A DNA stretch of 44,466 nt. Source: Dehalococcoidia bacterium. Lineage in GTDB: Bacteria; Chloroflexota; Dehalococcoidia; UBA2979. The stretch covers positions 1 through 44,466 of the forward strand of contig JAUXUW010000247.1 in assembly GCA_030684635.1 (NCBI GenBank). Reading direction: 5' to 3'. Within the stretch, counting starts at the first letter, position 1, and every line of letters starts with the position of its first letter. Positions 15,684 through 41,885 of the stretch are shown here, piece after piece. A model generated the notes under the pieces. The model worked only from the letters and a program-made list of their open reading frames with translations. It was not told the DNA's origin and did not search any database. The position numbers were made by a program, and so were the translations under genes.

Positions 15684-15717
15684 CTGCGTTACTGGCGTGC
15701 GGAGCGGGAGGGCAACC

Positions 15718-17948: not shown

Positions 17949-18161
17949 ATGATCGTGAGCGCCCCGCCGAAGAAGTGCCCCCGCTGCCAGGGCCTGATGA
18001 TTATCGAGGACGACTGGTACGGCCAGTTCGGCACGTGCGTAGCCTGTGGCTACGTCCACGAGGCCCAGCGCTGTGACCCGAAGGACCTCGAAGAGGAAGA
18101 GCGATTGGCCGCGGGCAAGCAGCGCCGCCGCCAGCCGTCCCACGGCAAGCTCCGCCTCTAG
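17949..18161 (+). CDS. Small C4 zinc-ribbon protein (70 aa) with a basic C-terminal tail, function unknown
   Basis: A strong SD (AAGGAGGG) lies 5 nt before the ATG. The Cys pattern is CPRC-N16-CVAC, followed by an acidic patch (DLEEEE) and then KQRRRQPSHGKLRL. The ORF is followed by a terminator hairpin. Confidence 0.6.
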   Translation: MIVSAPPKKCPRCQGLMIIEDDWYGQFGTCVACGYVHEAQRCDPKDLEEEERLAAGKQRRRQPSHGKLRL

Positions 18162-24985: not shown

Positions 24986-24987
24986 CG

Positions 24988-26031
24988 ATGTCCCGCGCCC
25001 AGCACTCCCCCCGCGTCCGCACCGCGCGCCGTGCCGTTGCCGTCGCGGTCGGCGTTGTCTCCGCGCACCTGCTCCGCACCGTGGCCTTCGCGCAGGAAGC
25101 CGCCAGGGAGGTTGTGGAGGTAGGCGGCGGCGTCTCGTCGTTCGGGCTTGGGGACTGGGTGGGGCTGGTGCTCCGCCTGAGCCTGGTGCTGGGCGTGATC
25201 TGGGGCGCCGTTGCGGCGATGCGCTGGTACGTCCGTCGCACGCAGGGTGTGGGTGGCCGCGGGGCACTCGCGGCGCTCGAGGTGATCGAGACGCACGCGC
25301 TCGGTCCGAACCGCGCGCTGCACCTGGTGCGCCTCGGTGACCGCGCGGTGCTCGTGGGCGCGACCCCGGAGCGCATCACCAGCCTGATGACCGTGGACGA
25401 CCCAGAGGAGGTGCGCCGGTTGTCCGAGCACCCGGAGACCTCCGGGCGCCGCTCACTCTCCGCTTCGTTGGCCGGCTCGCTGAGCGGCGCCGCCAGCACG
25501 CTGGCCGGGTCGCGCGCAAGAGCAGAGGCCTCGCCCCGTGCGAATCAGGGCACGCGCCCGTCGCCGTTCGAGGCGATGACTGCCGGCCTGGCCGCCTTCC
25601 GGGAGATGATCCCCTCGATGCCGTCGCGCCCCCGCGCGGACGTCCGGGCAGACGAGGACGATGAGTTCGAAGAGTTCGAGGGCGACGCCATCGACCCGCG
25701 GCGGCCGCTGACGAGCCGCCTGCGGGGTGCGCGCGGCCTGTTCGGCCGTGTCCGCACCGCGCAGGATGCGCCCGCGTTCGACTTCGAGGAGCGCATCGAG
25801 GACCACGCGCCGCGCCGGTCGGCCGGGCTGTTCGAGCGCACGCTGGCCGCCGCTGAGACGGACGGCCGTGCCGACGCCGCGGAGTTCGAGACGTCTCGTG
25901 CGCTCCGTGCCCGCAATGGTTACGCCTCGACCCCCGCCTCGGTCGCCGCAGCGGCCGCCAGCGTGGACCGCGAGCGACGGATCGCAGATGTGCAGCGCGC
26001 GATCGCCGAAGCGCGGAGGAACGCCGGTTGA
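24988..26031 (+). CDS. fliO: Flagellar biosynthesis protein FliO with a long low-complexity C-terminal extension
   Basis: A TM segment and the FliO core are present (WVGLVLRLSLVLGVIWGAVAAMRWY...LEVIETHALGPNRALHLVRLGDRAVLVGATPERIT). About 200 further residues are rich in R/A/E/D/S. The gene sits between fliY and fliP. Confidence 0.7.
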   Translation: MSRAQHSPRVRTARRAVAVAVGVVSAHLLRTVAFAQEAAREVVEVGGGVSSFGLGDWVGLVLRLSLVLGVIWGAVAAMRWYVRRTQGVGGRGALAALEVIETHALGPNRALHLVRLGDRAVLVGATPERITSLMTVDDPEEVRRLSEHPETSGRRSLSASLAGSLSGAASTLAGSRARAEASPRANQGTRPSPFEAMTAGLAAFREMIPSMPSRPRADVRADEDDEFEEFEGDAIDPRRPLTSRLRGARGLFGRVRTAQDAPAFDFEERIEDHAPRRSAGLFERTLAAAETDGRADAAEFETSRALRARNGYASTPASVAAAAASVDRERRIADVQRAIAEARRNAG

Positions 26032-29017: not shown

Positions 29018-31129
29018 ATGGCGGCAGCACGGACATCGGCGCGCAGGGACACCACGGACGTGGGGTTGCTCTCCATCATCACGCGCAATTCGGACGTGGC
29101 GCTGGCGATCACGGTGCTCGCGGTCATCGGCCTCATGATCGTGCCGGTGCCGCCGATGGTGCTGAGCCTGCTGATCGTCGCCAACTTCGCCGCCTCCGTC
29201 ACGATCATGCTGATCGCGATGTACACGCGGGAGGTGCTGTCGTTCAGCGTCTTCCCATCCCTCCTGTTGCTGGTCACGCTCTTCCGCCTGGCGATCAACA
29301 TCGCCTCGACGCGCCTGATCCTGCTCTATGGCGACGCCGGCTCGGTCATCGATGCGTTCGGTGAGTTCGTGATCGGCGGCTCGCTGATCGTCGGCATCGT
29401 GGTGTTCCTCATCCTGCTCGTGATCCAGTTCGTGGTGATCACGAACGGTGCCGGCCGGGTCGCGGAGGTCGCCGCCCGGTTCACCCTGGACGCCATGCCC
29501 GGCAAGCAGATGTCGATCGATGCCGACCTGAACGCCGGCCTCATCTCAGACACCGAGGCGCGGACGCGCCGGGCGAAGATCTCCGCGGAAGCGGACTTCT
29601 ACGGCGCGATGGACGGCGCCTCCAAGTTCGTGAAGGGCGACGCGGTCGCCGGGCTGATCATCACCTCGATCAACCTCATCGGCGGCATGACGATCGGGAT
29701 CATGCAGCAAGGGCTTGCGCCGGGGGAGGCGGTCTCCGCCTTCTCCATCCTGACCGTCGGCGACGGCCTCGTCTCGCAGATCCCGGCGCTCCTGGTCTCG
29801 ACCGCGACGGGCATCATCGTGACCCGCGCGGCGTCCGAGGGCCACCTGGGTCAGGACATCGGCGGGCAGTTGTTCTCCAACCCGCGCGTCATGTTCATCG
29901 TCGCGGGCATCCTGACAACCTTTGGCCTAGTACCGGGACTTCCCCGATCCCCGTTCTTCATCATCGCGGCCATCATGGGAGGCGCCGGGTACCTTCTCCG
30001 CCAGCGCCAGCGGGCGCGGGCGGTGGAAGTGGCCGAGGCCCGCGAGGTTGAAGACCGGGATGAAGCGCAGAGCGTGGACTCCGTGGTCAACATGCTCCGG
30101 GTTGATCCGCTGGAGGTGGAGGTCGGATACGGCCTCATCCCGCTGGTGGACGGCGAACACGGCGGGAATCTGCTGCACCGGATCACCATCATGCGACGTC
30201 AGATCGCCACGGACCTTGGCATTGTGGTCCCGATGATCCGGATTCGGGACAACCTGTCGTTGCCCGCGAACCAGTACGTCTTGAAGCTGCGCGGTATCGA
30301 AATCGGCGGCGGCCAGCTCCTCGCCGGCCAGTTTCTGGCGATGGACTCCGGCCTGGCGACGGCAGAGATCGCCGGCACGGCCACGACCGAACCGGCCTTC
30401 GGCCTCCCGGCGCGCTGGATTGCCCCCGCGGACAAGCAACAGGCCGAGTTCCTGGGCTACACGGTGGTCGACCCGCCGTCCGTCCTCATTACTCACGTCT
30501 CGGAACTCATCAAGCGGCACTCGCCGGAACTGCTGTCCCGCCAGGATGTGCAGACGCTCCTCAACCACCTCAAGGAGGAGTATCCAGCCGTGGTGGACGA
30601 GCTGGTCCCCGGCATCCTCACCGTGGGCGAGGTGCAGGGCGTCCTGCAGTTGCTGCTGGCCGAGGGCGTCTCCGTCCGCGACCTGGTCACCATCGCCGAG
30701 ACGCTGGCCGACCTGGGCCGCCAGACGAAGGAGATCGAGGCGCTGACGGAGGGTGTCCGCACTGCGCTGGCGCGCCAGATCACCATGCAGCACCGCGCCG
30801 CGGACAACCGCATCCATGCCATGACGCTGAACCCGCGCCTGGAGCAATCGCTCGCGCAGGCGCTGACGCCCACGGACGCCGGGATGGCGCTCGTGGTGTC
30901 GCCGGACCTGCTGCAGCGACTGCTGACGGCGGTCGCGGCACAACTCGAACGCGCCGCTGCCCAGGGCCGGCAGCCGGTCTTGCTCACGTCCAGCCGCATC
31001 CGGCGGCCGCTCCGACGGCTGCTTGAGCGTTCCGTACCGGCGTTGCCGGTGATCGCCTTCGCGGAGATCGCGCGCGAGGTCGAGGTGGAAGCGATCGCAC
31101 AGGTGGAGGTGGAATATGCAGCAGCCTAA
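29018..31129 (+). CDS. flhA: Flagellar export apparatus protein FlhA
   Basis: 703 aa. The FHIPEP region is present (RFTLDAMPGKQMSIDADLNAGLI...FYGAMDGASKFVKGDAVAG), with a cytoplasmic C-terminal domain. Confidence 0.9.
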   Translation: MAAARTSARRDTTDVGLLSIITRNSDVALAITVLAVIGLMIVPVPPMVLSLLIVANFAASVTIMLIAMYTREVLSFSVFPSLLLLVTLFRLAINIASTRLILLYGDAGSVIDAFGEFVIGGSLIVGIVVFLILLVIQFVVITNGAGRVAEVAARFTLDAMPGKQMSIDADLNAGLISDTEARTRRAKISAEADFYGAMDGASKFVKGDAVAGLIITSINLIGGMTIGIMQQGLAPGEAVSAFSILTVGDGLVSQIPALLVSTATGIIVTRAASEGHLGQDIGGQLFSNPRVMFIVAGILTTFGLVPGLPRSPFFIIAAIMGGAGYLLRQRQRARAVEVAEAREVEDRDEAQSVDSVVNMLRVDPLEVEVGYGLIPLVDGEHGGNLLHRITIMRRQIATDLGIVVPMIRIRDNLSLPANQYVLKLRGIEIGGGQLLAGQFLAMDSGLATAEIAGTATTEPAFGLPARWIAPADKQQAEFLGYTVVDPPSVLITHVSELIKRHSPELLSRQDVQTLLNHLKEEYPAVVDELVPGILTVGEVQGVLQLLLAEGVSVRDLVTIAETLADLGRQTKEIEALTEGVRTALARQITMQHRAADNRIHAMTLNPRLEQSLAQALTPTDAGMALVVSPDLLQRLLTAVAAQLERAAAQGRQPVLLTSSRIRRPLRRLLERSVPALPVIAFAEIAREVEVEAIAQVEVEYAAA

Positions 31130-32429
31130 GCGGTTCCAGGCAGGCACGCTGGCCGAGGCGTACGACAAGGTGCGCCGCGAACTGGGTGCGGACGCCGTGA
31201 TCCTCTCCACCCGCAAGGCGTATGCACCGGGGCTCTTTGGCCAGCCGGGCCGGCAGTTCGTGGAGGTGGTTGCACACCTTCCCACGGTCGCCGAGGCCGC
31301 ACCCACGGGACGCCGCCCCATGCTGGAGCAGGACCTGGCGGCGCACGACATGATCCGTGCGGTCGCGGAGGCCACGGCCGCCGCTCCGCTCGAGGAGTCG
31401 AAGCCTGCCCCTGCCACGCACTCCGGGTTCCTGCGTGCCGCTGCCGCCGCGGACCCAGAGGAGTCCGAGTCGGAGGTCGCCCGTCAGTCGCTGCCTGCCG
31501 CTGAACTGGCGCCGCTCAGCCGGCAACTGGACCAGATGCGCACGCTCCTGGAGTCCCTGGTCGCGGACCGTGCCGGCGCGCGCATGGACGCGGCCCCGGC
31601 CGCTGCCCGCGACCTGCGCGACCGCCTGATCCGCCACGGCGTCTCGCCGCGCCTGGCTGCGACCATCCTCGGCGAGGCCGGGGAGGCCGTGGTGCGCGCC
31701 GACAACGTGGACGCGATGGCGCGGACGGTCGAGCGCAAGATCGCCGCGAAGCTGCCGCAGACGAGCACGCCGACGTTCGGGCGCCGCCCGCTGGCGATCT
31801 TCCTCGTGGGCCCCGGAGGCGCCGGCAAGACCACGGTCGCCGTGCGCCTGGGCCTGGAACTGGAGCGCGCCAACGGCCTGCGCGTGGCGCTGGCCGGCAC
31901 GGACGTGAACCGTGCGGGTGCGCCGCAGCAGCTGCTGGCGTATGGCGCCGCGACCGGGCTGCCCGTGCACCTGTGCTACGGCCCGGAGGAACTCGATGAG
32001 TTGCTCCGGTCGGGCAGCGCCGACGTCGTGGTCGTGGACACCCCCGGCCACAATGGCCTGAAGCGCGACCGCATGGCGGAACTCAGCGCCTTCCTCGGGG
32101 TCGCGCGCACCAGGTCCGTGTTGCTCACCCTGCCGGCGACGATGAAGGGGAGTGACCTCACGGATGTCGTCGCAGCCTTCAGCACCGTGGGTGTGGATGG
32201 TCTGGTCGCGACCCGTTGCGACGAGACCTCGCACTTCGGCGCGCTGGTGGACGTGGCCGTGGATGCCGCAATCGGCTTCGCGTACACCACGCACTCCGAC
32301 CAGGTGAGCGAGGCTCCGCGGACTGCGGACAACCTGGCCCTGGCCACGGCGGTCGTGGCAGCCGAATGGACTGCGCCTTCGCCGGTGAACGCCGCGTCAG
32401 CGCCGCGTCGATTGGCACGGGTGGGCTAG
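31116..32429 (+). CDS. flhF: Flagellar biosynthesis GTPase FlhF (SRP-type)
   Basis: The N-terminal B-domain is MQQPKRFQAGTLAEAYDKVRRELG. The SRP-GTPase motifs are LVGPGGAGKTT, VVDTPG and TRCDET. The gene overlaps the flhA end by 14 nt. Confidence 0.85.
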   Translation: MQQPKRFQAGTLAEAYDKVRRELGADAVILSTRKAYAPGLFGQPGRQFVEVVAHLPTVAEAAPTGRRPMLEQDLAAHDMIRAVAEATAAAPLEESKPAPATHSGFLRAAAAADPEESESEVARQSLPAAELAPLSRQLDQMRTLLESLVADRAGARMDAAPAAARDLRDRLIRHGVSPRLAATILGEAGEAVVRADNVDAMARTVERKIAAKLPQTSTPTFGRRPLAIFLVGPGGAGKTTVAVRLGLELERANGLRVALAGTDVNRAGAPQQLLAYGAATGLPVHLCYGPEELDELLRSGSADVVVVDTPGHNGLKRDRMAELSAFLGVARTRSVLLTLPATMKGSDLTDVVAAFSTVGVDGLVATRCDETSHFGALVDVAVDAAIGFAYTTHSDQVSEAPRTADNLALATAVVAAEWTAPSPVNAASAPRRLARVG

Positions 32430-32435
32430 CCGGGC

Positions 32436-33095
32436 GTGTCCTCCTTCATCGACCTCAAGCCCGGTACACGGGTGAACGTGACCCCCCCGGAGGATCCGGG
32501 AGGGGCCACATACGAGTGCACCATCCGCCAGGTGACCCCTCGCGGCATGCGCCTGAGCACGCCGCGGCGTGATGGCGAGGTGCTGGAGGTCGTCCCGGGC
32601 GAAGAGCTGGCGATGTTCACCATGCTCCACGGGCGGGTCTACCGCTTCCAGGTGGCCGTGCGCCTGGTGGAGTTCACCGAGTACGACAGCATCACCGTGG
32701 AACTCCCGGCAGAGGCGGAGCGTACGGAGCGACGTGCGTACTACCGCCTGCCAACCCGCATCGAGCCGCGCCTCGCCATGCGCCTGGACGATGCGGGGAA
32801 GGAAGTCCAGCGGCTGAACGTGACGGTCATGGACATGTCGGGCGGCGGCATGCTGCTGCAGGTGCGGGAGTACATTCCGTCCGGCGCCCGCATCCGCATC
32901 GTGCTGGAACTGGAGGGCGAGCCGCTGGAGTTGGACATGCTGATGCAGGCCCTCAGCGTGCAGCGCCCCTCGACCTCCGCCCAGTACTACCGCGTGAACA
33001 GCCAGTTCATCGATCCCGACCGCCGGGAGCGCGAGCGCGTGGTCCGCTACATCTTTCGCCAGCAAGTGGAGATGCGACGCAAGGGGGTCATCTAG
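32436..33095 (+). CDS. PilZ-domain c-di-GMP receptor, YcgR/MotI-like flagellar brake candidate
   Basis: The PilZ motifs RRAYYR (RxxxR) and DMSGGG (DxSxxG) are correctly spaced in the C-terminal half. The N-terminal ~95 aa resemble a PilZN/YcgR-N barrel. The start is GTG. Confidence 0.75.
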   Translation: MSSFIDLKPGTRVNVTPPEDPGGATYECTIRQVTPRGMRLSTPRRDGEVLEVVPGEELAMFTMLHGRVYRFQVAVRLVEFTEYDSITVELPAEAERTERRAYYRLPTRIEPRLAMRLDDAGKEVQRLNVTVMDMSGGGMLLQVREYIPSGARIRIVLELEGEPLELDMLMQALSVQRPSTSAQYYRVNSQFIDPDRRERERVVRYIFRQQVEMRRKGVI

Positions 33096-33427
33096 TGCTG
33101 ATCCTGCGCGCCGGCCTCTACCTCGCCGTCGTCGTGGCGGCCTGGACGGTATGGGCGTCCCTGGGGGCCGGCTATCACGTCGAGACCGCGATCGTCCGGG
33201 GCCTGCTGGCGTTCCTGCCCGTGGTGTTCGTCGCCTACCTCGCCGAGATCGTGGTGGTGACGGCCCCCGTCCGGCACCGCGAGGGCCGGGAACGCGGTGC
33301 CGCATATGAGGATGAGATCGGGCGCGCCGAGGATGACGCGCACACCGAACAAGAGAACCGCACGCCAGCCAGCCTCCCCGCGGCCCGCGAACGCGCGACT
33401 GCGATGGAGCGGCGAGCAGCCGCCTAG
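33095..33427 (+). CDS. Small two-TM membrane protein with a charged tail (hypothetical)
   Basis: The GTG shares one nt with the preceding TAG. Two hydrophobic segments are followed by an R/E/D-rich tail. The ORF is wedged between the PilZ gene and fliA. Confidence 0.5.
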   Translation: MLILRAGLYLAVVVAAWTVWASLGAGYHVETAIVRGLLAFLPVVFVAYLAEIVVVTAPVRHREGRERGAAYEDEIGRAEDDAHTEQENRTPASLPAARERATAMERRAAA

Positions 33428-33441
33428 TCTGAGGTAACGAG

Positions 33442-34263
33442 ATGGCCACCCAGCGACGGAAGCCCCTCGATCCGAACGCCCTCACCGGGGAGGCCTTGCA
33501 GCGCGCGAACACCGTGCTGTGGGAGCGCTTCCTGGCGACGAAGGACGCAGCGGTGCGCGAGCAGATCATTCTGCAGTACGCGCCGCTGGTGAAGTACGTC
33601 ATGGGCCGCCTGGCGATCTCTCTCCCGGCGATCCTGGACTATGAGGACATCCTCTCCTTCGGCACGATCGGCCTGATCGAGGCCGTGGAGCGGTTCGATC
33701 ACACCAAGGGCGTGAAGTTCGAGACCTACGCGATCTCCCGCATCCGCGGCGCGATCATCGACGCCCTGCGGTCGTTGGACCGGCTGCCGCGTTCCGTGCG
33801 CCAGAAGGCCCGGGACGCGAACGCGGCGATCCTCACGTTGACCGGCGACCTGGGCCGCGAGCCCACGGACGACGAGGTCGCCAGCGCCCTGGGACTGACC
33901 CCGGACGCTTACCGCAAGACGCTCATCGACGCGTCCTGGATCACCGTGTCACTGGACTCGCTGGGGGCGACCGACGGCGAGGACGACACCGGCGGCCCCA
34001 TGTCCGTGGCAGACCCGGACGACGAGGACTTCTCCGTCGACCTGGAGCGCCAGGAACTGATCGGTGATCTCTCGGCTGTGATTAGGGATTTGCCTGATCG
34101 GGAGCAGTTCATCCTCTCGCTTTACTACAAGGACGAACTGACGATGCGTGAGATCAGCGAGGTCCTACAGATCTCCGAATCCCGCGTCTGCCAGCTCCAC
34201 GCACGGGCGCTTGGCCGGCTCCGCACGGGCCTGCTGAGCCGGCAACATGGACAGGCAGCATGA
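33442..34263 (+). CDS. fliA: Flagellar sigma factor FliA (sigma-28 / SigD / WhiG family)
   Basis: Region 2 is present (LVKYVMGRL...DILSFGTIGLIEAVERFD...KFETYAISRIRGAIID). Region 3 and region 4 are also present (LSLYYKDELTMREISEVLQISESRVCQLHARAL). Confidence 0.9.
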   Translation: MATQRRKPLDPNALTGEALQRANTVLWERFLATKDAAVREQIILQYAPLVKYVMGRLAISLPAILDYEDILSFGTIGLIEAVERFDHTKGVKFETYAISRIRGAIIDALRSLDRLPRSVRQKARDANAAILTLTGDLGREPTDDEVASALGLTPDAYRKTLIDASWITVSLDSLGATDGEDDTGGPMSVADPDDEDFSVDLERQELIGDLSAVIRDLPDREQFILSLYYKDELTMREISEVLQISESRVCQLHARALGRLRTGLLSRQHGQAA

Positions 34264-34739
34264 GCGTCTCACCGGCCATCTTGCTTCTCAGCCTCGCCAT
34301 CGGCGTCCCGTTGATGCTGCTGGCGCTTGGCGTCCTGTATCACGGCTACCTGCTCTCTCAGCAGGCCCAGCGCGACCCGCTGGAGGCGCACGTCGAGTCT
34401 CTGGCAACCGAGTCCACCGAGGCGCTCCTCGCGAGCCTGCAGCACTCCGTCGACCAGCTCCAGGGCCAGATGGCCCGCCAGCGAGACTCGCTCGCCGGCC
34501 TCCTCTCCGACCAGCGCGCTGCCATGACCTTCGTGACCGCCGCCCCTTCCCCGCGTGCTGACGACCGCCCCATGGCGGCCGGCGAACACGTGAGCGCCGC
34601 AGCGCCGGCCACGTCTGACCTGCGCTCTCGGGTGCTCGCACTCACCGAGGACGGGCTCTCTGACCGCGCCATTGCGCGTGAATTGAACGTCGGCCTCGAA
34701 GAGGTCCGCATCGCGCGGCTGCGCGGAGGTCGGGCATGA
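34260..34739 (+). CDS. Membrane-anchored protein with a C-terminal sigma-region-4/LuxR-like HTH (unknown function)
   Basis: ATGA overlap with fliA. There is an N-terminal TM segment (AILLLSLAIGVPLMLLALGVLY), a Q/L-rich helical stretch and a C-terminal HTH (LTEDGLSDRAIARELNVGLEEVRIARL). Confidence 0.6.
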   Translation: MSVSPAILLLSLAIGVPLMLLALGVLYHGYLLSQQAQRDPLEAHVESLATESTEALLASLQHSVDQLQGQMARQRDSLAGLLSDQRAAMTFVTAAPSPRADDRPMAAGEHVSAAAPATSDLRSRVLALTEDGLSDRAIARELNVGLEEVRIARLRGGRA

Positions 34740-35362
34740 CCCGGCGCTTCCTGATGCTTTCCACCGCGCTCGTCGCGCTGGCCCTGGTGGGCGTCATGGT
34801 GATCCCGGCAGGCGCTGCCCGCGCCAACGGCGTTCCGGTGCCCGTGGAACTCAAGTACATCGACCTGTCGAACTGGGGGCCCCAGGACGCGACCGGCAAC
34901 GCCGAGTTGATGTTCGCCGAGGGCGTCCTGCGCCTCGAGGCGTCCGGTCTCGAACGGCTGTCCGGCCGGCTCTACCAGGTGTGGCTCGTGAACTCCGAGG
35001 CGGGCGACGCGATCTCTGCAGGCCGCTTCAACGCGGCGGTGGGTGGGTCCGTGGACTTCACCGGCACCCTGCCTCCGCTTTCCGACTTCGGCTTCGACCT
35101 CCTGATCCTGACCGTGGAACCGGAGCCGGACGACGCGCCGCAGCCGACCGAGGACCGCTCGATCGGCGGCTACTTCAGCCTGGTGGGCCAGCCCGGCGCG
35201 GATGGCAACCAGGCCGCTGCCGGGGGCCTGGGCGCCCCGGGCCGGTTGCCGAACACCGGCGACCCCGGCCTGATCGCTGACCTGGTGCGCTTTGGCGCGC
35301 TGCTGGGCGCTATGTCCCTTTCCGTGTTCGTCGGGCTTCGCCTCGGCCGGAGGGCAGCATGA
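34736..35362 (+). CDS. Sortase-anchored (LPNTG) surface protein with an RskA-like (anti-sigma-K C-terminal) domain
   Basis: ATGA overlap with the previous ORF. A signal peptide ends in AGAARA. An RskA_C-like signature is present (RLYQVWLVNSEAGDAISAGRF). The C-terminal sorting signal is LPNTG, a hydrophobic stretch and RLGRRAA. Confidence 0.65.
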   Translation: MTRRFLMLSTALVALALVGVMVIPAGAARANGVPVPVELKYIDLSNWGPQDATGNAELMFAEGVLRLEASGLERLSGRLYQVWLVNSEAGDAISAGRFNAAVGGSVDFTGTLPPLSDFGFDLLILTVEPEPDDAPQPTEDRSIGGYFSLVGQPGADGNQAAAGGLGAPGRLPNTGDPGLIADLVRFGALLGAMSLSVFVGLRLGRRAA

Positions 35363-36186
35363 TCCGCGGCCTCTACACCGCCGCTTCCGGCATGCTGCTG
35401 GGCCTGCGCCAGCAGGAAGTCGTGGCGGACAACCTCGCCAACTCCAATACCGTCGGCTATAAGGCGGACCAGTCTGCACAGACGGCGTTCTCCGGTGTCC
35501 TCGCGCGCCGTGTCGGCTCCAGCGACGGGCCGATGCGCGGCACCACGGACCGGGTCATCGGCATGGTGGGGACGGGTGCGTTCGTGCAGAACGTCCGCAC
35601 GTTCCTGGGCCAGGGTTCGGAGCGCGAAACGGGCTCACCGCTGGACGTGATGCTCCGTGGGGACGGGTTCTTTGTGGTGCAGGCAGAAAACGGCCTGCGC
35701 TACACCCGTGACGGCCACTGGGACCGCGACGACCAGGAACGCCTGGTGACCGCCGATGGCGCCCTGGTGCTGGATGTCCAGGGCAATCCGATCTCCGTGG
35801 ACACGGACCACATCCGCGTCAAGCCGGACGGACGCCTCGTTCGACTGGTCTCCACCCCCATCGAGTCGGCGGACGGCTCCACCGTCATGGAGGTGACGGA
35901 GGACGAGATTGCGCGGCTTCAGGTGGTGACCGTGGGTGCTGACGATCTGGTGCGCGCGGGGGCCTCACAGTTCCTCGTGATCCCGGGCGCCGCGATCACC
36001 CCACTGGATCCCGCCGAGGGCACAGCGTTTGTCCTCCAGGGCTCGCTGGAGGAAGCGAACGTGAACGTGGGGCAGTTCGCCACACAGCTCTACTCCGTCG
36101 CGCGTTCCTATTCGACGAGCCAGCGCGTCTTCTCCGCCATCAACGACACGCTCGAGAGCGCCGTCCGCGAAGTCGGCCGGGTCTAA
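35359..36186 (+). CDS. flgF: Flagellar basal-body rod protein (FlgF / FlhO-like)
   Basis: The N-terminal rod motif is MIRGLYTAASGMLLGLRQQEVVADNLANSNTVGYK. The C-terminal motif is ...GSLEEANVNVGQFATQL. Confidence 0.8.
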   Translation: MIRGLYTAASGMLLGLRQQEVVADNLANSNTVGYKADQSAQTAFSGVLARRVGSSDGPMRGTTDRVIGMVGTGAFVQNVRTFLGQGSERETGSPLDVMLRGDGFFVVQAENGLRYTRDGHWDRDDQERLVTADGALVLDVQGNPISVDTDHIRVKPDGRLVRLVSTPIESADGSTVMEVTEDEIARLQVVTVGADDLVRAGASQFLVIPGAAITPLDPAEGTAFVLQGSLEEANVNVGQFATQLYSVARSYSTSQRVFSAINDTLESAVREVGRV

Positions 36187-36196
36187 GGGGGCCACA

Positions 36197-37018
36197 ATGT
36201 CTCTGTCCCTGGACGCCGCGATCAGCGGCATGCTCACGCAGCAGCGCAACATCGAGGCGATCGCAAACAACCTCGCGAACGTGAACACCACCGGCTACAA
36301 GCGTGTCAAGATCCACTTCCAGGACATCCTGAACTCCTCCGCGGTGTTCGCGGCCCTGACCGGGCCGGAGAACCTGGCGGACATCAGCCAGTCCTCCGGC
36401 GTCTCCACGGCGTCCACGAAGCGGGATTTCGAGCAGGGTGCCCTGCAGCCCAGCGGTCGTCTGCTGGACTTCGCAATCAGCGGCGACGGCTTCTTCCGTG
36501 TCCTGCTGGATGACGGCTCCACCGCGTACACCCGCGCAGGCGTCTTCATGCTGGACGGCGCCGGCAAGGTCGCCACCAGCAGTGGTGAATTGCTGGACCC
36601 GCCGCTGCAACTGCCGGACCAGTTCCGTGATCTCCGCATTGAGCAGGATGGTTCCGTGACCGTCATGCGCGACTTCACCGACGAGGAACTCGCCGCGCTG
36701 GACGACTTCGCGGCGCGCGATGGCGTGCGCGAGGTGGTGGGCCAGATGGAACTCGCGCGGTTCCCGAACCCGTCCGGCCTCGCCGCCATCGGTAACAGCC
36801 GGTACCGCGAGACTCCGGAGTCGCAGGCGCCGATCTTCGGCCGGCCGGGCGAAGACGGGATGGGTTCGGTGTTCAGCGGCTGGCTGGAGGCGTCCAACGT
36901 GGACATCGCCACGGAGATGACCGGCCTGGTGATGGCCAAACGCGGTTACCAGTTGAACCTTGTCGCCTACCGCACCATCGAAGAGATGCTGACGAAGGCG
37001 AACGACGTCACGGTCTAG
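36197..37018 (+). CDS. flgG: Flagellar distal rod protein FlgG (FlhP-like)
   Basis: ISGMLTQQRNIEAIANNLANVNTTGYKR is at the N-terminus. SGWLEASNVDIATEMTGLVMAKRGYQLN is at the C-terminus. Confidence 0.85.
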   Translation: MSLSLDAAISGMLTQQRNIEAIANNLANVNTTGYKRVKIHFQDILNSSAVFAALTGPENLADISQSSGVSTASTKRDFEQGALQPSGRLLDFAISGDGFFRVLLDDGSTAYTRAGVFMLDGAGKVATSSGELLDPPLQLPDQFRDLRIEQDGSVTVMRDFTDEELAALDDFAARDGVREVVGQMELARFPNPSGLAAIGNSRYRETPESQAPIFGRPGEDGMGSVFSGWLEASNVDIATEMTGLVMAKRGYQLNLVAYRTIEEMLTKANDVTV

Positions 37019-37043
37019 TGCCAGCCGTGCAGGGGATACGACC

Positions 37044-37358
37044 ATGATTCAGCCCATTCGCCCACAGGACGCCAGCGGCATCTACCAGCGGCAGGTCTCC
37101 AGTTCCCGCGAGGCCGGCGAGGCGCCCGCGCAGCGCACCGCCGCCGCGGCACGCGGCGACCAGTCGCGTCGCACGGACCACGTGGCGGTCTCGGACGAGG
37201 CCCGCCTGTTCGCCCGCGTCATGCAGTCCGTGGTGGACGCGCCGGACGTGCGCGCCGCCCGCGTCGCCGAACTGCGCGAGCGCGTGGAGTCCGGCGCCTA
37301 CCAGGTGGATGCAGATGCGCTGGCCCGGCTCATGTTCGAGCGCGGGGTGCAGGGATGA
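37044..37358 (+). CDS. flgM: Anti-sigma-28 factor FlgM
   Basis: 104 aa. The C-terminal FlgM motif is present (DVRAARVAELRERVESGAYQVDADALARLM). Confidence 0.7.
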   Translation: MIQPIRPQDASGIYQRQVSSSREAGEAPAQRTAAAARGDQSRRTDHVAVSDEARLFARVMQSVVDAPDVRAARVAELRERVESGAYQVDADALARLMFERGVQG

Positions 37359-37870
37359 TCGCCGCGGACACCGAACTGACCGGCGGCGCAAACGGCCTGG
37401 TAGCCGTCATGGAATCGCAGGGCGACGTGTACCGCGCGCTCCTGGGTCTTGCCACGTCCGAGCAGGGCGCGATCCTGGAGGGCGACGTGTCGCGCCTCAC
37501 CGAGATTGTGCGCCTCAAGGAAGAACTGTACGACCACCTGCGCGCGCTGGAGACGGAGCGGATGACCGCGCTCGTGGCCATCGAGGCCGCGACCGGCATC
37601 GCGCCCGACCAGGCGACCGTCAGCGAGATTGCCTCCCGGCTGCCGGTCGAGCACGCGACCACGCTCTTGCGTACCGGCCGCGAACTCCGCGGCCAGGCGG
37701 TCGCCCTGGAAGAGGCGCAGACCGCAAATGCGCGGCTGCTGGAGCAGAGTCGGGCGCTGGTCGACCGCTGGCTCCAGTACCTGCGCACCCTCCTTGCCGG
37801 CTCCGTATACACCCCGGACGGCGTCACGCCGTCGCTGCCCGGCGGCCGTGCGCTGGACCGCAGCGCGTAG
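37355..37870 (+). CDS. flgN: FlgN-family flagellar chaperone
   Basis: ATGA overlap with flgM. The 171-aa helical protein (LLGLATSEQGAILEGDVSRLTEIVRLKEEL...) sits immediately before flgK. Confidence 0.55.
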   Translation: MIAADTELTGGANGLVAVMESQGDVYRALLGLATSEQGAILEGDVSRLTEIVRLKEELYDHLRALETERMTALVAIEAATGIAPDQATVSEIASRLPVEHATTLLRTGRELRGQAVALEEAQTANARLLEQSRALVDRWLQYLRTLLAGSVYTPDGVTPSLPGGRALDRSA

Positions 37871-37879
37871 GGGCCCGCC

Positions 37880-39247
37880 ATGGCGATCTCCGTCGGCCTG
37901 AACTCCGTCATGCGCGCGCTCCTGGCGCAGCAGCAGGCGATGGACGCCGTGGCGCACAACGTCGCGAATGTGAACACGCCCGGCTACAGCCGGCAGGTGG
38001 TCCGGCTGGCAGCCGTCGCCCCCGGTGATACGGGTATTGGCAACGGCGTGCAGATTGAGGGGATCGATCGGATCCGCGACCTGTTCGTGGATTTTCAGAT
38101 GCGCACAGAGGCACATGCCGCCGGCGAGTACGCCGCTCGCGCCTCTTCCTTGCAGATGGCCGAGCTCGCCCTCGGTGAACCCGGTGACACGGGGCTGATG
38201 GCCGCTATGGACGGCTTCTTCAACGCCTGGCGGGACCTGGCGAACGCACCCGGGGAGAGCGCTTCCCGCAGTGCCGTCCTACAGGCGGGCGAGACGCTGG
38301 CGTTCTCCGCCCGGCGCCTCTCGCGGACGTTCACGGACATCCGCACGGACGCGAACACGCGGATCGCGAGCGCGGTCGATGAGGTCAACGCGATCGGCCG
38401 CGAGGTGGCCGCCCTCAACCAGCGGATCATCATCGTGCGGGCCACCGGTGACCCGGCGGCGGACCTCACCGACCAGCGTGATCTCGCCCTGGACCGCCTC
38501 TCCCGGCTGGCGGATACGCGCGTCATGCAGCACGAAGACGGGCACGTTGACGTCTTCATCGGCGGGCGCGCGCTGGTCCAGGGCAACCGGGTGAACGAGA
38601 TGGTCCCGGTCCGCAACCCCGCCAACAACGACTACATCGACCTGACGTGGGCCTCGGACGGCGCGGCCGTGAAGGTCGCCAGCGGCGAGATCGGCGGGCT
38701 GCTCCAGCAGCGCGATGTCGACCTCCCCGCACGGCTCGCGGACCTGGACACGCTGATCACGCAGATCATGACAGACGTGAACACCGTCCACGCGGCTGGC
38801 TTCGCCCTGGACGGCGTCACCACCGGCCTCGCGTTCTTCACCGGCACCGGCATCGCTGACATCGCCGTGGATGGTGCACTGGCGGCGGACCTGCGCCTGC
38901 TGGCTGCCGGCGGTGCGGCCGCTGCCCCGGGCGACGGCTCCGGTGCGACGGCGATCGCGCGCCTGCAGGAGGCAGCGAACCTGACCGCGGGTAGCGAGAC
39001 CTACGGCGCCTTCTATAGCGGCGTCACGACCCGCCTGGGCGTGGCCGTCCGTGATGCGAAGCGGCTTGCCGAGTCGCAGGCGCTGACGATCTCTCACCTG
39101 GAACAACTCCGGCAGTCCGTCGCCGGGGTCAACCTGGATGAAGAGATGGTGAACATGGTGCAGTTCCAGCGCGGCTACCAGGCCGCCTCGCAGGTCATCC
39201 AGAAGATCAACGAGATGCTGGATGAGCTGTTCCGGATGGTGCAGTAG
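37880..39247 (+). CDS. flgK: Flagellar hook-associated protein 1 FlgK
   Basis: The N-terminus is LNSVMRALLAQQQAMDAVAHNVANVNTPGY. The C-terminus is VNLDEEMVNMVQFQRGYQAASQVI. Confidence 0.9.
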   Translation: MAISVGLNSVMRALLAQQQAMDAVAHNVANVNTPGYSRQVVRLAAVAPGDTGIGNGVQIEGIDRIRDLFVDFQMRTEAHAAGEYAARASSLQMAELALGEPGDTGLMAAMDGFFNAWRDLANAPGESASRSAVLQAGETLAFSARRLSRTFTDIRTDANTRIASAVDEVNAIGREVAALNQRIIIVRATGDPAADLTDQRDLALDRLSRLADTRVMQHEDGHVDVFIGGRALVQGNRVNEMVPVRNPANNDYIDLTWASDGAAVKVASGEIGGLLQQRDVDLPARLADLDTLITQIMTDVNTVHAAGFALDGVTTGLAFFTGTGIADIAVDGALAADLRLLAAGGAAAAPGDGSGATAIARLQEAANLTAGSETYGAFYSGVTTRLGVAVRDAKRLAESQALTISHLEQLRQSVAGVNLDEEMVNMVQFQRGYQAASQVIQKINEMLDELFRMVQ

Positions 39248-39249
39248 CC

Positions 39250-40137
39250 ATGCGCGTCAGCAACCGGTCCCTGAACGAGCGCCTGCTCATGCACATCCAG
39301 ACGGCGTCAACTCGCCTGAACGAAACGCAGGAACGCGTGGCCAGCGGCAGGCGGGTCCAGCGCGCGTCCGACGACCCGTTTGCGGCGAATCGCTCCATCC
39401 AGGCGCGGTCGGACCGCAACGTCATCGAGCAGCGCGTCCGCACGATCAACCTCGCCCAGTCCGAACTGGCCGTGACGGAGTCGGCGGTCGTGTCGCTCTC
39501 GAACGTCCTGACGCGCGCCCAGGCGCTGTCCGTGCAGGCGGACAGCGCCGGCCTGGATGCCTCTGCGCGCAACCAGATCGCGGCGGAAGTGGACGAACTG
39601 ATCAACGAGGCGCTACAGGTCGCGAACAGCGCCCATGGCGGCCGTCGGATATTCGGCGGGCACCAGTCAGGTGCCGCGCCGTTCGTGCCGGATGTGCCCG
39701 GCCTGCCCACCACCGTCACCTACCAGGGCGACGCGGGGCTGGTGCTCCGCGAGATCGGGGACGGCGAGCAGATCGCCGTGAACCTGGACGGCGATGCGCT
39801 GTTCGATGGCGCATTCACCTCGCTCATCGCGTTCCGAGATGGGCTGCGGGCGAACGACCGCACGGCGATCAACGCTGCGGCGACCGCCATCGGTGCGGAG
39901 ATCGAGGTCGCGCTCCAGGCGCGCGGCGACATCGGCGCCCGGGTGCGCCGGCTGGACATCGTCTCGGAGCGACTCCAGGGCGATGACGAGCGGTTGCGAG
40001 GCCTGGTGGCTGAGTTGGAGGAGGTCGACCTGACCTCAGAAGTCGTGGAACTGCAGATGCGCGACATGGCCTTCCAGGCCGCGCTGTCTGCTACCGGTCG
40101 GTCGCTCAACATGAGCCTGTTGGATTACCTGCGTTAG
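39250..40137 (+). CDS. flgL: Flagellar hook-associated protein 3 FlgL
   Basis: There is a flagellin-like N-terminus (RLNETQERVASGRRVQRASDDPFAA) and C-terminus (DLTSEVVELQMRDMAFQAALSATGRSLNMSLLDYL). Confidence 0.85.
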   Translation: MRVSNRSLNERLLMHIQTASTRLNETQERVASGRRVQRASDDPFAANRSIQARSDRNVIEQRVRTINLAQSELAVTESAVVSLSNVLTRAQALSVQADSAGLDASARNQIAAEVDELINEALQVANSAHGGRRIFGGHQSGAAPFVPDVPGLPTTVTYQGDAGLVLREIGDGEQIAVNLDGDALFDGAFTSLIAFRDGLRANDRTAINAAATAIGAEIEVALQARGDIGARVRRLDIVSERLQGDDERLRGLVAELEEVDLTSEVVELQMRDMAFQAALSATGRSLNMSLLDYLR

Positions 40138-40174
40138 TGCACACGGGCGTGGTGCCCGAGTTGGGGGTGTCATC

Positions 40175-40648
40175 ATGCGGATCAAGACGAATTTCCTGGG
40201 TATGGAGCAGACCGTCGAGGTGGCCGAAGAGCAGATCTTCGCCTTCGAGCCGGGCATCGGTGGCTTTGACGGCCTCCGCCGCTACGCGCTGATCGCGGAA
40301 GAGGACTCGGCGGTGGAGTGGCTCCAGTCGGTGGACGATTCGGACGTGTGCTTCGCGCTCCTCGAGCCGTTCGCGCTCCTGCCGGACTACTCCTTCGAGA
40401 TGTCGGACTCGGACGTGGAGGGCGTGGGCATGGAGGAGCCGGGCGACGTGATCGTCCGTTCCATCCTCACCCTGCACGAGGACCCGGCGCTGATCACGGT
40501 GAACCTGCTGGCGCCGCTGGTGCTGTGCCGGCGCACCCACCTGGCCCGCCAGGTCATCCTGCAGGGCGTGGACTACTCCATGCGCTACCCGGTCCTGACC
40601 GCCATCGAGGCGATGGCCGGCGAGGATGAGCTTCGCGCCTCCGCCTGA
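40175..40648 (+). CDS. fliW: Flagellar assembly factor FliW
   Basis: IFAFEPGIGGFDGLRRYALI...EWLQSVDDSDVCFALLEPF...ITVNLLAPLV is the FliW family pattern, and the gene is adjacent to csrA. Confidence 0.85.
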   Translation: MRIKTNFLGMEQTVEVAEEQIFAFEPGIGGFDGLRRYALIAEEDSAVEWLQSVDDSDVCFALLEPFALLPDYSFEMSDSDVEGVGMEEPGDVIVRSILTLHEDPALITVNLLAPLVLCRRTHLARQVILQGVDYSMRYPVLTAIEAMAGEDELRASA

Positions 40649-40753
40649 CACGCGGCTGTGCCCGCATCGGTGAACGGCCGATGATCCCAGAGGGGTCAGC
40701 GGCAGGGAGCCGTGCGTCCATCACGCGCAGCGTCACAGGCAGGGAGGCCACGG

Positions 40754-41173
40754 ATGCTCATTCTCACGCGTAAGGCCGAACAGGGGATCGTGATCGATGG
40801 CCGGGTGGTGATCCGCCTGCTGTCGATCGAAGGCGAACGCGTCAAGATCGGCGTCGAGGCTCCGCGCTCCATCTCCGTGCTCCGCGAGGAGCTCCTGGGC
40901 GAGGTCGCCGGCGAGAACCAGGCCGCGGCGAAGTTCCACGGCCACGCCGGTCTGGCCGATACGCTGCGCCAGTTGCCCGGCCGCAGCATTACCCCCACGG
41001 ACACGCCCGCCGGCGACTCGCCGGCGAGGGCGTGCCGTCGGCGCGCAGGGCACCCCGCCCGGTATCGCCGCGCGCCCGCAGCGCGTGGTGCTGGCCCCGC
41101 GCCCCCGGGGCCAGCACCTGTGTCCACGTCCCCAGCCGCTCACGAATGCCATTCTGCTCCGCAGGACAGATAA
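40754..41173 (+). CDS. csrA: Carbon storage regulator CsrA homologue, in an unusually long ORF (140 codons)
   Basis: MLILTRKAEQGIVIDGRVVIRLLSIEGERVKIGVEAPRSISVLREEL is the CsrA core. AGGGAGG lies 6 nt before the ATG at 40754. The frame stays open for about 85 further low-complexity codons to 41173. Confidence 0.75.
   Translation: MLILTRKAEQGIVIDGRVVIRLLSIEGERVKIGVEAPRSISVLREELLGEVAGENQAAAKFHGHAGLADTLRQLPGRSITPTDTPAGDSPARACRRRAGHPARYRRAPAARGAGPAPPGPAPVSTSPAAHECHSAPQDR
41087..41118 (+). terminator. Strong hairpin inside the 3' extension of the csrA ORF
   Basis: GGTGCTGGCCCCG-cgcccc-CGGGGCCAGCACC is a perfect 13-bp stem, followed by tgtgtcc with no clear T tract. Confidence 0.4.
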
Positions 41174-41378
41174 CGATGTTGCACCTAACGCTTGCGTTAA
41201 GGTTCGGAATCCTGTGACTCAGCAAACTCTCAGAAAGCAACCGTTATTGCTGGGGCAAAATCTGACGCTCGCGTAAGCGTTTCTATTCATAGATGTTTGT
41301 GATGTCTGATACATGTGCCGATGAAGAAAGGAATAACATCCGTGCTTGACCGGGTTGAGTCGAGCAAGGGGGTGTGCC

Positions 41379-41885
41379 GTGAGGAACCGAGACCGTTTCA
41401 TCTCGCTCTGTGGCGTCCTAGTCCTGGGCGTGGCGCTGGTTGGATGCGGCGGCGGGAGTGCGGACACCGCGTCCGCCAGTTCGCCCGGTTCGGCCGGGCA
41501 GAGTCAGAGTGCTGGCGCGGCCCAGCGGGCCACGTTCAACGCCGCTGCCACACCGGCGCCAGAGGGCACTGATCCGCTGGCCGCAGCGGTCATCAATGCC
41601 TTCATCGCGATGATCGCCAAGGACAAGGCCGGGCTCGACGCACTCTCCACGGCACCGCTCTCAAGCACCGAAGCAGAGACGGCGTACGCCTGTACGGGCG
41701 GCGGCACCTCCCCGACCATCGAGTCGCAGCAGGCTACGGTGAACGGCACGAGCGCGACCGTGGCGGTGAAGTTCCGGTCGAACGCCGGGTTCGCGATCCG
41801 GCGTGCAAGCGGGACGTGGGAACTCGCCCAGCAGGGGGACGGCTCGTGGAAGTTGTCGGCGGCACCCGTCTGCACGCAGGGCTAG
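41379..41885 (+). CDS. Lipoprotein, function unknown
   Basis: GTG 41379 is preceded by AAGGGGG. The lipobox is VALVGC-GGGS. The mature part is a small mixed alpha/beta domain. The TTG at 41346 in the ORF track is less likely to be the start. Confidence 0.6.
   Translation: MRNRDRFISLCGVLVLGVALVGCGGGSADTASASSPGSAGQSQSAGAAQRATFNAAATPAPEGTDPLAAAVINAFIAMIAKDKAGLDALSTAPLSSTEAETAYACTGGGTSPTIESQQATVNGTSATVAVKFRSNAGFAIRRASGTWELAQQGDGSWKLSAAPVCTQG

Follow-up and report, generated by a model that had tools for sequence, protein, structure and literature searches.

How a flagellar rod passes through, and rotates within, a thick peptidoglycan layer that offers neither a P-ring nor an L-ring is an unresolved question, and to our knowledge almost all that is understood about monoderm flagella comes from Bacillus. 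Flagella of the Chloroflexota were first seen only recently, in Tepidiforma. We analyzed a 44,466-nucleotide stretch of DNA from a Dehalococcoidia bacterium of this phylum (the window: contig JAUXUW010000247.1 of assembly GCA_030684635.1, positions 1 to 44,466, forward strand), in which two open reading frames (ORFs), ORF1 and ORF2, encoding proteins of 159 and 208 amino acids, are placed between fliA, the gene for the flagellar sigma factor sigma-28, and the genes for the flagellar rod. What do these two proteins do in a flagellar operon? An initial annotation, made from the sequence alone, had read them as a split, cell-wall-anchored version of an anti-sigma sensor module of the type found in the anti-sigma-K factor RskA.

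That reading is weak, as neither protein holds a zf-HC2/ASD anti-sigma domain in Pfam and NCBIfam scans at E values up to 1. We consider it modestly probable that ORF1 and ORF2 are instead two independent, lineage-specific flagellar accessory factors with different jobs, rather than two halves of one sensor. Of the two, ORF2 is probably anchored to peptidoglycan and associated with the rod, and ORF1 resembles the membrane-tethered flagellar assembly factors SwrB and FipA.

Two genes occupy a conserved slot between fliA and the rod genes

Both ORFs are real genes, with third-position GC contents (GC3) of the coding type (0.84 for ORF1 and 0.89 for ORF2, against about 0.9 for the flagellar genes and a genome GC of 69%) and conservation of each in more than 100 protein clusters. 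Inspection of the raw sequence and its ORFs confirmed the chain that had been described from fliA through ORF1 and ORF2 into the first rod gene, with three ATGA stop/start overlaps whose coordinates are all correct (Table 1). The same slot is taken by both ORFs in about 90 independent loci.

When 1.84 billion cluster representatives were searched exhaustively with HMMER, 254 ORF2-family clusters emerged at E ≤ 1e-3; as judged from these profile matches, the family is a small, tight subfamily, distinct from the large anti-sigma RskA family. All of the approximately 90 ORF2 loci that were recovered are flagellar loci, and nearly all of those with enough flanking sequence show the order fliA-(ORF1)-ORF2-flgF-flgG-flgM; 59 of the loci come from metagenomes. 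On two megabase-scale contigs the order can be read as flhB-flhA-flhF-PilZ-small ORF-fliA-ORF1-ORF2-flgF-flgG-flgM-flgN-flgK-flgL-fliW-csrA, and it is unchanged in 30 GTDB species-representative genomes, all of them metagenome-assembled genomes (MAGs) of Dehalococcoidia or Chloroflexi. The cultured Thermomicrobium roseum DSM 5159 carries on its megaplasmid fliA, a gene for a 127-residue transmembrane (TM) protein, a gene for a 233-residue protein and flgF-flgG-flgM; the 233-residue protein is 36% identical to ORF2 and scores 28.7 bits against the RskA_C domain family. A metagenome scan, seeded with an alignment of a distant ORF2 subclade, gave 60 loci, almost all of which, where the flank suffices, show fliA, a gap of 400–650 nt, an ORF2-like gene and flgF-flgG-flgM, with identities to ORF2 down to 27–35%. 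One family member is annotated from an Anaerolineae MAG. The linkage to fliA that had been noted in this one stretch is therefore syntenic in relatives, across at least three Chloroflexota classes.

At the ORF2-flgF junction, 62 of 78 loci, T. roseum among them, preserve the 4-nt stop/start overlap, and several of the others show a slightly longer overlap; the corresponding overlap of fliA with ORF1 is kept in 48 of 84. Median identities in the close clade are 72% for FliA, 70% for FlgG, 65% for ORF2, 58% for FlgF, 48% for FlgM and 47% for ORF1. In the distant clade they are 63% for FliA, 33% for FlgG and 34% each for ORF2, FlgF and FlgM, the same-slot ORF1-like proteins being too divergent there for tblastn to give a value. 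ORF2 diverges at the rate of the rod proteins. By position, coupling and evolutionary rate as compared across these loci, ORF2 behaves like a core part of the Chloroflexota flagellar gene set. Its link to the rod genes is as close as that of any core flagellar gene in the phylum, which makes it a tangible candidate for a flagellar part at the level of the wall.

ORF2 carries a conserved sorting signal behind an RskA_C-like domain

The N-terminus of ORF2 reads as a signal peptide, MTRR followed by a hydrophobic core and the predicted cleavage site ARA|NGVP; this call, judged from the sequence, agrees with the initial annotation, and the site is conserved family-wide (A-x-A|N-G-x-P), with A30, N31, G32 and P34 near-invariant across the wide family. 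The relation to the extracytoplasmic domain of RskA, which had been suggested from a short signature, is borne out by a match to RskA_C (PF10099) over residues 42–138 that lies above the Pfam gathering threshold (35.6 bits, E 1.3e-8; threshold 29.4). Distant members from flagellar loci score 33–46 bits. The AlphaFold2 (AF2) model, built on a 23-sequence alignment, forms a seven-strand sandwich at residues 35–127, with values of the predicted local distance difference test (pLDDT) of 78–90 in the core. A Foldseek search of this model against the PDB returned no significant match, the best being Cu,Zn superoxide dismutase (E=0.013), whose Greek-key sandwich is generic; searching PDB sequences with the ORF2 family profile found nothing, and NCBIfam scans gave no meaningful family for ORF1 or ORF2. 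The 1017-residue protein P0328 contains six RskA_C repeats (142.7 bits), so that tandem extracellular copies of the domain exist in proteins other than anti-sigma factors, too.

With RskA, the mycobacterial anti-sigma-K factor, ORF2 shares the RskA_C domain outside the membrane, and the two differ in most other respects. RskA possesses a cytoplasmic anti-sigma domain that is absent from ORF2, for which the ‘anti-sigma factor’ model NF052375 reaches 22 bits against a cut-off of 100, and only over its C-terminal part. RskA has a TM linker, whereas ORF2 has a cleavable signal peptide with only MTRR ahead of the hydrophobic segment, and RskA has no LPXTG motif. The neighbor of RskA is an extracytoplasmic function sigma factor of the sigK type, while ORF2 stands beside a group-3 sigma-28 factor of the FliA/WhiG family; the ORF2 relatives, moreover, form their own tight subfamily, the 254 clusters described above.

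The C-terminal LPNTG motif, hydrophobic stretch and RLGRRAA tail, which had been recognized as a sortase signal, are conserved with a variable X. LP[NSADE]TG stands at the equivalent place in 118 of 120 close homologues, and L171, P172, T174 and G175 do not vary among the 51 sequences of a wide alignment, which are 28–45% identical to ORF2 and were chosen mostly for having the LPXTG motif. Among the 150 best cluster representatives, 96 hold LPxTG within the last 60 residues, and most others are fragments or retain the hydrophobic/basic tail; the T. roseum homologue ends in LPQTG, a hydrophobic segment and RRAR. Drift of X while the fixed positions never vary is the pattern expected from selection on a sortase recognition site, and, on this comparative evidence, the LPXTG tail of ORF2 is not a chance motif. 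The most divergent genome-derived relative (L033:9403-10035) carries LPRTG followed by a poorly hydrophobic tail rich in Arg, Trp and Cys; the sorting signal may have degenerated here, or the nearby contig end may have introduced an assembly error.

A conserved sorting signal could also persist in a protein that sortase does not process. ORF2 would then stay bitopic or C-terminally anchored, holding its sandwich just outside the membrane, for example at the MS-ring, the proximal rod or the stators, and LPXTG would be a structural or interaction motif. Neither the 44-kb window nor the roughly 100 flanking sequences showed a sortase gene. Members of the close clade agree unusually well in the C-terminal hydrophobic segment (D182, R185, L189, M193, S196), and one third of the distant representatives end in a hydrophobic/basic tail and have no strict LPXTG among their last 60 residues. 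Across the wide family, however, the sequence of the hydrophobic segment is not conserved, whereas L, P, T and G are invariant and X is free among sequences of the low identity given above. Behind the motif there invariably come a spacer, a hydrophobic stretch and a basic tail, the textbook tripartite sorting signal, and the host group has peptidoglycan. We regard an unprocessed ORF2 as unlikely.

The combination of a signal peptide with a tripartite C-terminal sorting signal is shared with the LPXTG surface proteins of Gram-positive bacteria; ORF2 departs from these in its place in a flagellar operon, its coupling to a rod gene, its very small single-domain passenger and its occurrence in the Chloroflexota. 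LPXTG proteins are usually adhesins or enzymes, and no known flagellar domain was detected in ORF2, as would suit an adhesin or wall protein carried along in the operon with no part in the flagellum. Such a passenger is hard to reconcile with a position between fliA and flgF that is strictly conserved over about 90 loci and deep divergence, with the conserved overlap of the flgF start, with a rate of divergence equal to that of the rod proteins, and with recovered loci that are flagellar without exception; we hold it to be highly improbable. Literature queries on LPXTG together with flagellar operons, on sortase in Chloroflexi and on DUF6115 yielded no prior description of the ORF2 family, and no published case was found of an LPXTG protein inside a flagellar operon coupled to a rod gene. 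What appears to be new is the combination of sortase substrate, RskA_C domain and flagellar accessory protein, for which the comparative support is strong.

ORF1 resembles SwrB and FipA

The overall architecture that had been described for ORF1, an N-terminal TM helix, a coiled coil and a C-terminal helix-turn-helix (HTH)-like module, stands. The likeness of that module to sigma-70 region 4 or LuxR does not, as Pfam gave no Sigma70_r4 or GerE match and only weak matches to HTH_23 and HTH_38; the module comes closest to DUF6115 and DUF2802 instead. Four uncharged residues precede the TM helix, and in the family alignment the TM region contains invariant G15, P17, A22, G24, V25 and Y27 together with a near-invariant H28. 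Between the long helix (residues 53–92) and the C-terminal module runs a variable, disordered Pro/Ala linker. Across 26 diverse same-slot proteins, the C-terminal module keeps E148 without exception and G132 nearly so, with a hydrophobic residue in every case at position 151. In a distant subclade, too, the gene between fliA and the ORF2-like gene encodes an N-terminal TM segment and a C-terminal ...G[VM]D[VI]xxLARRMxxSEEEVRLLL... motif.

ORF1 matches DUF6115 at 22.2 bits (E 1.9e-4; gathering threshold 27), and 17 of 34 ORF1 family members do so at E<0.01, the best at 4.5e-5. The tentative label ‘DUF2802-like’ in the initial annotation proved right in flavor and wrong in the letter: ORF1 itself gives no DUF2802 match at E up to 1 (gathering threshold 33.5), and it is a more distant same-slot Chloroflexi protein, at locus L033, that scores 27.5 bits against DUF2802 and 24.9 bits against DUF6115. 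This L033 protein matches the ORF1 profile (P=5.7e-5) and is 40% identical to SwrB in its C-terminus; by these scores it bridges the DUF6115 and DUF2802 families. A homologue search with the ORF1 profile returned the same clade only and did not reach the Firmicutes SwrB proteins. For direct comparison we used a Bacillus subtilis SwrB sequence that agrees with the published length of 167 residues and the allele positions H13, L48, F51, L53 and L155 (six out of six). This sequence scores 27.0 bits against DUF6115 and 15.7 bits against DUF2802, and its hhalign alignment with ORF1 gives P = 0.001–0.006 over 33–34 co-linear C-terminal columns. A common motif spacing (+16, +19) links G132/E148/I151 of ORF1, G136/E152/L155 of SwrB and G110/E126/L129 of FipA, the equivalence of ORF1 and FipA residues being read from published residue numbers rather than from an alignment of the FipA sequence.

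SwrB, the product of the gene right behind sigD, spans the membrane once, with its N-terminus outside and C-terminus inside (N-out/C-in), and activates flagellar type III export; L155P is one of its few loss-of-function alleles (PMC4526659; bioRxiv 10.1101/2021.04.30.442225). Like ORF1, it follows the sigma-28 gene immediately, at the end of a fla/che-like gene order, and the flbD-motAB-fliLMN-fliPQR-flhBAF...fliA-ORF1 order of the window matches that of B. subtilis. The two proteins are of similar size (167 and 159 residues) with a poorly conserved middle region and a single N-terminal TM segment, basic residues lying distal to it, in an N-out/C-in topology that is experimentally shown for SwrB and predicted for ORF1. 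Both share the C-terminal G-x15-E-x2-hydrophobic motif (L155 in SwrB, I151 in ORF1) and give DUF6115 hits, that of ORF1 below the gathering threshold (22.2 against 27 bits). They differ further in that the similarity is limited to some 33 C-terminal residues; H13 in the TM segment of SwrB has no clear equivalent in ORF1, which has the near-invariant Y27-H28 at the membrane edge; and swrB closes its operon, while ORF2 and the rod genes come after ORF1.

In Vibrio, Pseudomonas and Shewanella, the 163-residue DUF2802 protein FipA binds FlhF and is required to form flagella; G110, E126 and L129 of FipA are invariant, and the substitutions G110A and L129A abolish FlhF binding (PMC11620751). Its size and layout recall ORF1, with residues 1–5 outside, a TM segment at 6–28, a cytoplasmic coiled region and a conserved C-terminal module, as do the invariant G/E/L spacing, the encoding near flhF-fliA and, over the loci compared, the co-occurrence with flhF. 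The DUF2802 link, in contrast, runs only through the L033 homologue, the locus has no flhG, the FipA hosts are polar-flagellated gammaproteobacteria rather than monoderm Chloroflexota, and binding of ORF1 to FlhF is a prediction. SwrB L155, the residue altered in the L155P allele, corresponds to FipA L129; the FipA paper makes no mention of SwrB (PMC11620751). SwrB (DUF6115) and FipA (DUF2802) may form one superfamily, which would make FlhF a candidate partner of SwrB.

Taken together, ORF1 reads as a new, divergent member of the SwrB/FipA type. The statistics are modest because the shared module comprises only about 30 residues; architecture, topology, size, gene slot and the mapped motif agree. 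That SwrB, FipA and the Chloroflexota proteins encoded behind fliA share this motif and co-occurrence with FlhF suggests one widespread family of membrane-tethered helpers of FlhF or the export gate.

The C-terminal module could alternatively make ORF1 a membrane-tethered DNA-binding regulator, following a ToxR/CadC-like logic with a LuxR-type HTH, in direct control of flagellar or other promoters. The last 33–40 residues superpose on the HTHs of LuxR/NarL, DegU and resolvase at 0.4–0.6 Å root mean square deviation, HTH_23 and HTH_38 match weakly, a PDB profile search with the ORF1 family gave NarL at E=0.06, and some sources label ORF1 homologues as NarL/FixJ regulators. The superpositions are local and not significant, however, all structural matches having E >0.1, and the PDB profile search yielded nothing of use. 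Nor does the module look like a reader of DNA, with three helices where LuxR-type domains have four, the invariant acidic residues E147 and E148 on the would-be recognition helix, and no GerE or Sigma70_r4 match. Its best families are those of SwrB and of FipA, whose module binds a protein, FlhF, and the ORF1 gene co-varies with flhF. A DNA-binding role appears very unlikely.

The ORF1 slot of T. roseum is filled by TRD_RS09465 (L035:8451-8834), a 127-residue protein that keeps the N-terminal TM helix and is missing the C-terminal HTH-like motif; its label, ‘transmembrane sensory transduction histidine kinase for metal resistance’, looks like a misannotation.

ORF1 tracks flhF, and ORF2 persists without both

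Do the two proteins work as a pair? Comparison of the loci that contain flhA, fliA and an ORF2-like gene suggests that they are not an obligate one. In 39 of these loci flhF is present and there is room for an ORF1-like gene. Five others have neither flhF nor an ORF1-like gene and retain an LPXTG-bearing ORF2, with flhA-fliA gaps of 427–1233 nt and fliA-ORF2 gaps of 113–238 nt; they represent three deep lineages, between which FliA is only 41–45% identical. At three further loci FlhF went undetected by tblastn and the gap is of normal size. By this comparison, ORF2 does not need ORF1, being kept in three lineages devoid of the ORF1 gene; the ORF1-like gene comes and goes with flhF, a pattern it shares with FipA. 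Exposing only about four residues outside the membrane, ORF1 furthermore cannot read the extracellular domain of ORF2. The persistence of ORF2 in lineages without ORF1 also led us to downgrade the idea that ORF1 recruits the ORF2 precursor through contacts between their TM segments.

The link to sigma-28

Placement behind a sigma factor gene raises the possibility that ORF2 is an RskA-type extracytoplasmic sensor which, alone or with ORF1, tethers or releases FliA according to the state of the wall or rod, so that FlgM would be joined by a further level of anti-sigma control. In favor, the ORF2 domain belongs to the RskA_C family proper, and its gene always lies directly downstream of fliA. 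A further observation comes from one Chloroflexi lineage in which a single 541-residue ORF (FliA::ORF2, protein P0399) joins FliA, a 40-residue linker, an ORF2-type signal/TM segment, an RskA_C-like domain and LPVTG. This frame is identical in three assemblies from different samples (L096:6001-7626; L097:6001-7626, GCA_012841665.1 DUUH01000420.1; L098:4393-6018) and was found on 15 contigs; the lineage is devoid of flhF, PilZ and an ORF1-like gene at the locus. If translated as one chain, FliA::ORF2 would hold sigma-28 at the membrane, and, if functional, it would represent a new way of doing so for a flagellar sigma factor. The frame may equally reflect a lost stop codon and an internal start. 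No clear Shine-Dalgarno sequence precedes the internal ATG.

Several results speak against the sensor. Neither ORF1 nor ORF2 has an anti-sigma domain or any similarity to FlgM (no match to PF04316), and mature ORF2 would have no cytoplasmic part once its signal peptide is cleaved. ORF1, with its few exposed residues, is dispensable in lineages that keep ORF2. The coupling is steadier between ORF2 and flgF (62/78) than between fliA and ORF1 (48/84). The FlgM gene at 37044, the canonical sigma-28 antagonist already pointed out in the initial annotation, is present (Pfam match of 57 bits), and the fusion accounts for one of 254 clusters and may be no fusion at all for the reason given. We give the sensor a small chance. 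A variant in which ORF1 and ORF2 arose by fission of an RskA gene was rejected, as the TM segment of ORF1 is N-terminal and its N-out/C-in orientation is the reverse of that expected, and no ASD is present.

A connection to sigma-28 is kept possible by the FliA::ORF2 lineage and by an indirect effect of the SwrB type. SwrB-type factors raise sigma-D-dependent expression indirectly, by way of hook completion (PMC4526659; bioRxiv 10.1101/2021.04.30.442225).

A proposed model of two independent accessory factors

Our preferred reading of two separate accessory factors can be cast as follows. ORF1 would be a SwrB/FipA-type monotopic membrane protein at the cytoplasmic face of the nascent basal body, where its C-terminal module would bind FlhF and/or the export apparatus and thereby promote flagellar assembly. 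Any effect on sigma-28 would be indirect, through completion of the hook-basal body and export of FlgM. ORF2, whose synthesis is tied to that of the rod proteins FlgF and FlgG, would be exported by Sec and trimmed by signal peptidase, leaving an RskA_C-type beta-sandwich of about 110 residues that sortase would link to peptidoglycan through Thr174 of LPNTG by way of a flexible tether of about 35 residues. In the wall beside the rod, it may act as an adaptor, a bushing or an assembly aid where the rod crosses the thick wall. Such a wall-level role is reasonable because flagellated Dehalococcoidia are monoderm, have a peptidoglycan layer of 20–30 nm and are without flgH/flgI (PMC10284905).

Lineage-specific, secreted, non-axial proteins encoded in flagellar loci have precedents in the P-ring protein FlgI, FlgP, FlgT, PflA/B and the E-ring protein FlgY, and such periplasmic motor scaffolds surround the rod or the MS-ring at the level of the wall or the periplasm (PMC13023049). 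ORF2 differs from them all in having no similarity of sequence or fold, and its attachment would be covalent, by sortase; ring formation or contact of ORF2 with the rod is conjectural. FlgY was considered as a closer analogue and set aside, being an unrelated MgtE_N-domain protein encoded next to fliJ/fliK (PMC13023049). A bolder form of the proposal holds that ORF2 is the first flagellar component to be covalently attached to peptidoglycan by sortase, a Chloroflexota wall adaptor or bushing in place of the P-ring whose delivery could also gate sigma-28, as in the FliA::ORF2 lineage; we put this forward tentatively and think it less than probable.

A number of observations weigh against the two-factor model. 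For ORF2, the RskA_C family is otherwise known only from anti-sigma factors, and the fold search against the PDB gave no informative match. A TLxTC motif scan for sortase genes found none in the 44-kb window or the approximately 100 fetched flanks and returned only out-of-frame noise; without a sortase at the locus, ORF2 could remain C-terminally membrane-anchored. For ORF1, the links to SwrB and FipA all fall below the Pfam gathering thresholds and rest on the motif of about 30 residues, the protein that T. roseum encodes in the ORF1 position is without the C-terminal motif despite the presence of flhF, and flhG is absent from the locus, whereas FipA is reported only alongside FlhF and FlhG. 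The FliA::ORF2 frame, in turn, hints at a role related to sigma-28.

Genomic context

ORF1 and ORF2 lie within one long plus-strand flagellar cluster, the features of which are collected in Table 1. It runs from two response regulators through flbD, motA, motB, fliL, fliM, fliN/Y, fliP, fliQ, fliR and flhB to flhA, and on from flhF through a PilZ/YcgR-like gene, a 110-residue membrane protein, fliA, ORF1, ORF2, flgF, flgG, flgM, flgN, flgK and flgL to fliW. The arrangement is in essence that of the Bacillus fla/che operon. Contig PHBR01000042.1 (‘Chloroflexi bacterium HGW-Chloroflexi-9’) shows 91–100% protein identity across the region. A consensus scan of 31000–41500 found no promoter-like site. 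The interval's single terminator-like site, a hairpin at 35654, was discarded: it lies inside flgF, and chance alone would give 3.2 such sites, more than the one observed.

Table 1 Features of the fliA-ORF1-ORF2-rod gene region (window coordinates)
Feature	Position	Strand	Evidence
flhF (SRP54-family, signal recognition particle-type GTPase), proposed partner of ORF1	31116..32429	+	Pfam SRP54 83.7 bits; presence/absence tracks the ORF1-like gene across loci
fliA, sigma-28 (FliA/WhiG family)	33442..34263	+	TIGR02479 FliA_WhiG 239 bits (cut-off 189.6); Sigma70 r2, r3 and r4 domains
ATGA overlap, fliA stop/ORF1 start	34260..34263	+	Read directly; 4-nt overlap kept in 48/84 related loci
ORF1, 159 residues, putative SwrB/FipA-like membrane-tethered flagellar assembly factor	34260..34739	+	DUF6115 22.2 bits; conserved behind fliA; GC3 0.84
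ORF1 N-terminal TM helix, residues ~5-32, N-out/C-in predicted	34272..34355	+	AF2 helix 5-37, pLDDT >90; basic residues on C-terminal side only
ORF1 long cytoplasmic helix, probable coiled coil, residues 53-92	34416..34535	+	AF2 helix; invariant Q74, R75, L78, S83
ORF1 C-terminal three-helix HTH-like module with G132-x15-E148-x2-I151	34611..34730	+	AF2 helices 118-130, 135-142, 146-157, pLDDT ~90
ATGA overlap, ORF1 stop/ORF2 start	34736..34739	+	Read directly; similar overlaps in loci L026, L032, L033
ORF2, 208 residues, predicted secreted RskA_C-like beta-sandwich protein with LPXTG sorting signal	34736..35362	+	PF10099 35.6 bits; GC3 0.89
ORF2 Sec signal peptide, residues 1-30, cleavage A-R-A|N-G-V-P predicted	34736..34825	+	MTRR + hydrophobic core + ARA
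ORF2 beta-sandwich domain, residues 31-138	34826..35149	+	AF2 seven strands; Pfam RskA_C residues 42-138
ORF2 flexible low-complexity linker, residues 139-170	35150..35245	+	pLDDT <50 for 139-174; length varies in homologues
ORF2 LPNTG sortase motif, residues 171-175	35246..35260	+	Read directly; conserved in homologues
ORF2 rest of sorting signal (spacer, hydrophobic segment, RLGRRAA tail), residues 176-208	35261..35359	+	AF2 helix 177-207; hydrophobic and basic tail conserved
ATGA overlap, ORF2 stop/flgF start	35359..35362	+	Read directly; kept in 62/78 loci
flgF-like proximal rod gene	35359..36186	+	Flg_bb_rod, LlgE_F_G_D1 and Flg_bbr_C domains; TIGR03506 127 bits
flgG-like distal rod gene	36197..37018	+	ORF listed; syntenic FlgG-type proteins with rod Pfam domains in locus L003
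flgM, canonical anti-sigma-28 factor, separate gene	37044..37358	+	Pfam FlgM (PF04316) 57.2 bits

Between flhF and fliA (32436–33427) there is no flhG (MinD-like) gene. The interval is taken up by the PilZ/YcgR-like gene at 32436–33095 and the gene for the 110-residue membrane protein, which has no family match, at 33095–33427; both keep their position in most related loci, and T. roseum has a gene for an 89-residue hypothetical protein instead. Directly upstream of flbD-motA-motB are a LuxR-type response regulator (18787–19545) and a stand-alone CheY-like receiver (19622–20074), which may provide local transcriptional and motor-control inputs of the flagellar cluster. Upstream of the cluster lie two adjacent GNAT acetyltransferase paralogues (15697–16296 and 16293–16886, overlapping by 4 nt) and a gene for a 70-residue zinc-ribbon protein (17949–18161). 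Between fliN/Y and the conserved part of fliP, about 1 kb (24985–26028) is without a confident ORF by the composition filter. In the ORF list, fliP begins with a long N-terminal extension, and related loci carry fliO there (L096:263-664); the interval may hold a hidden divergent fliO or reflect a mis-set fliP start.

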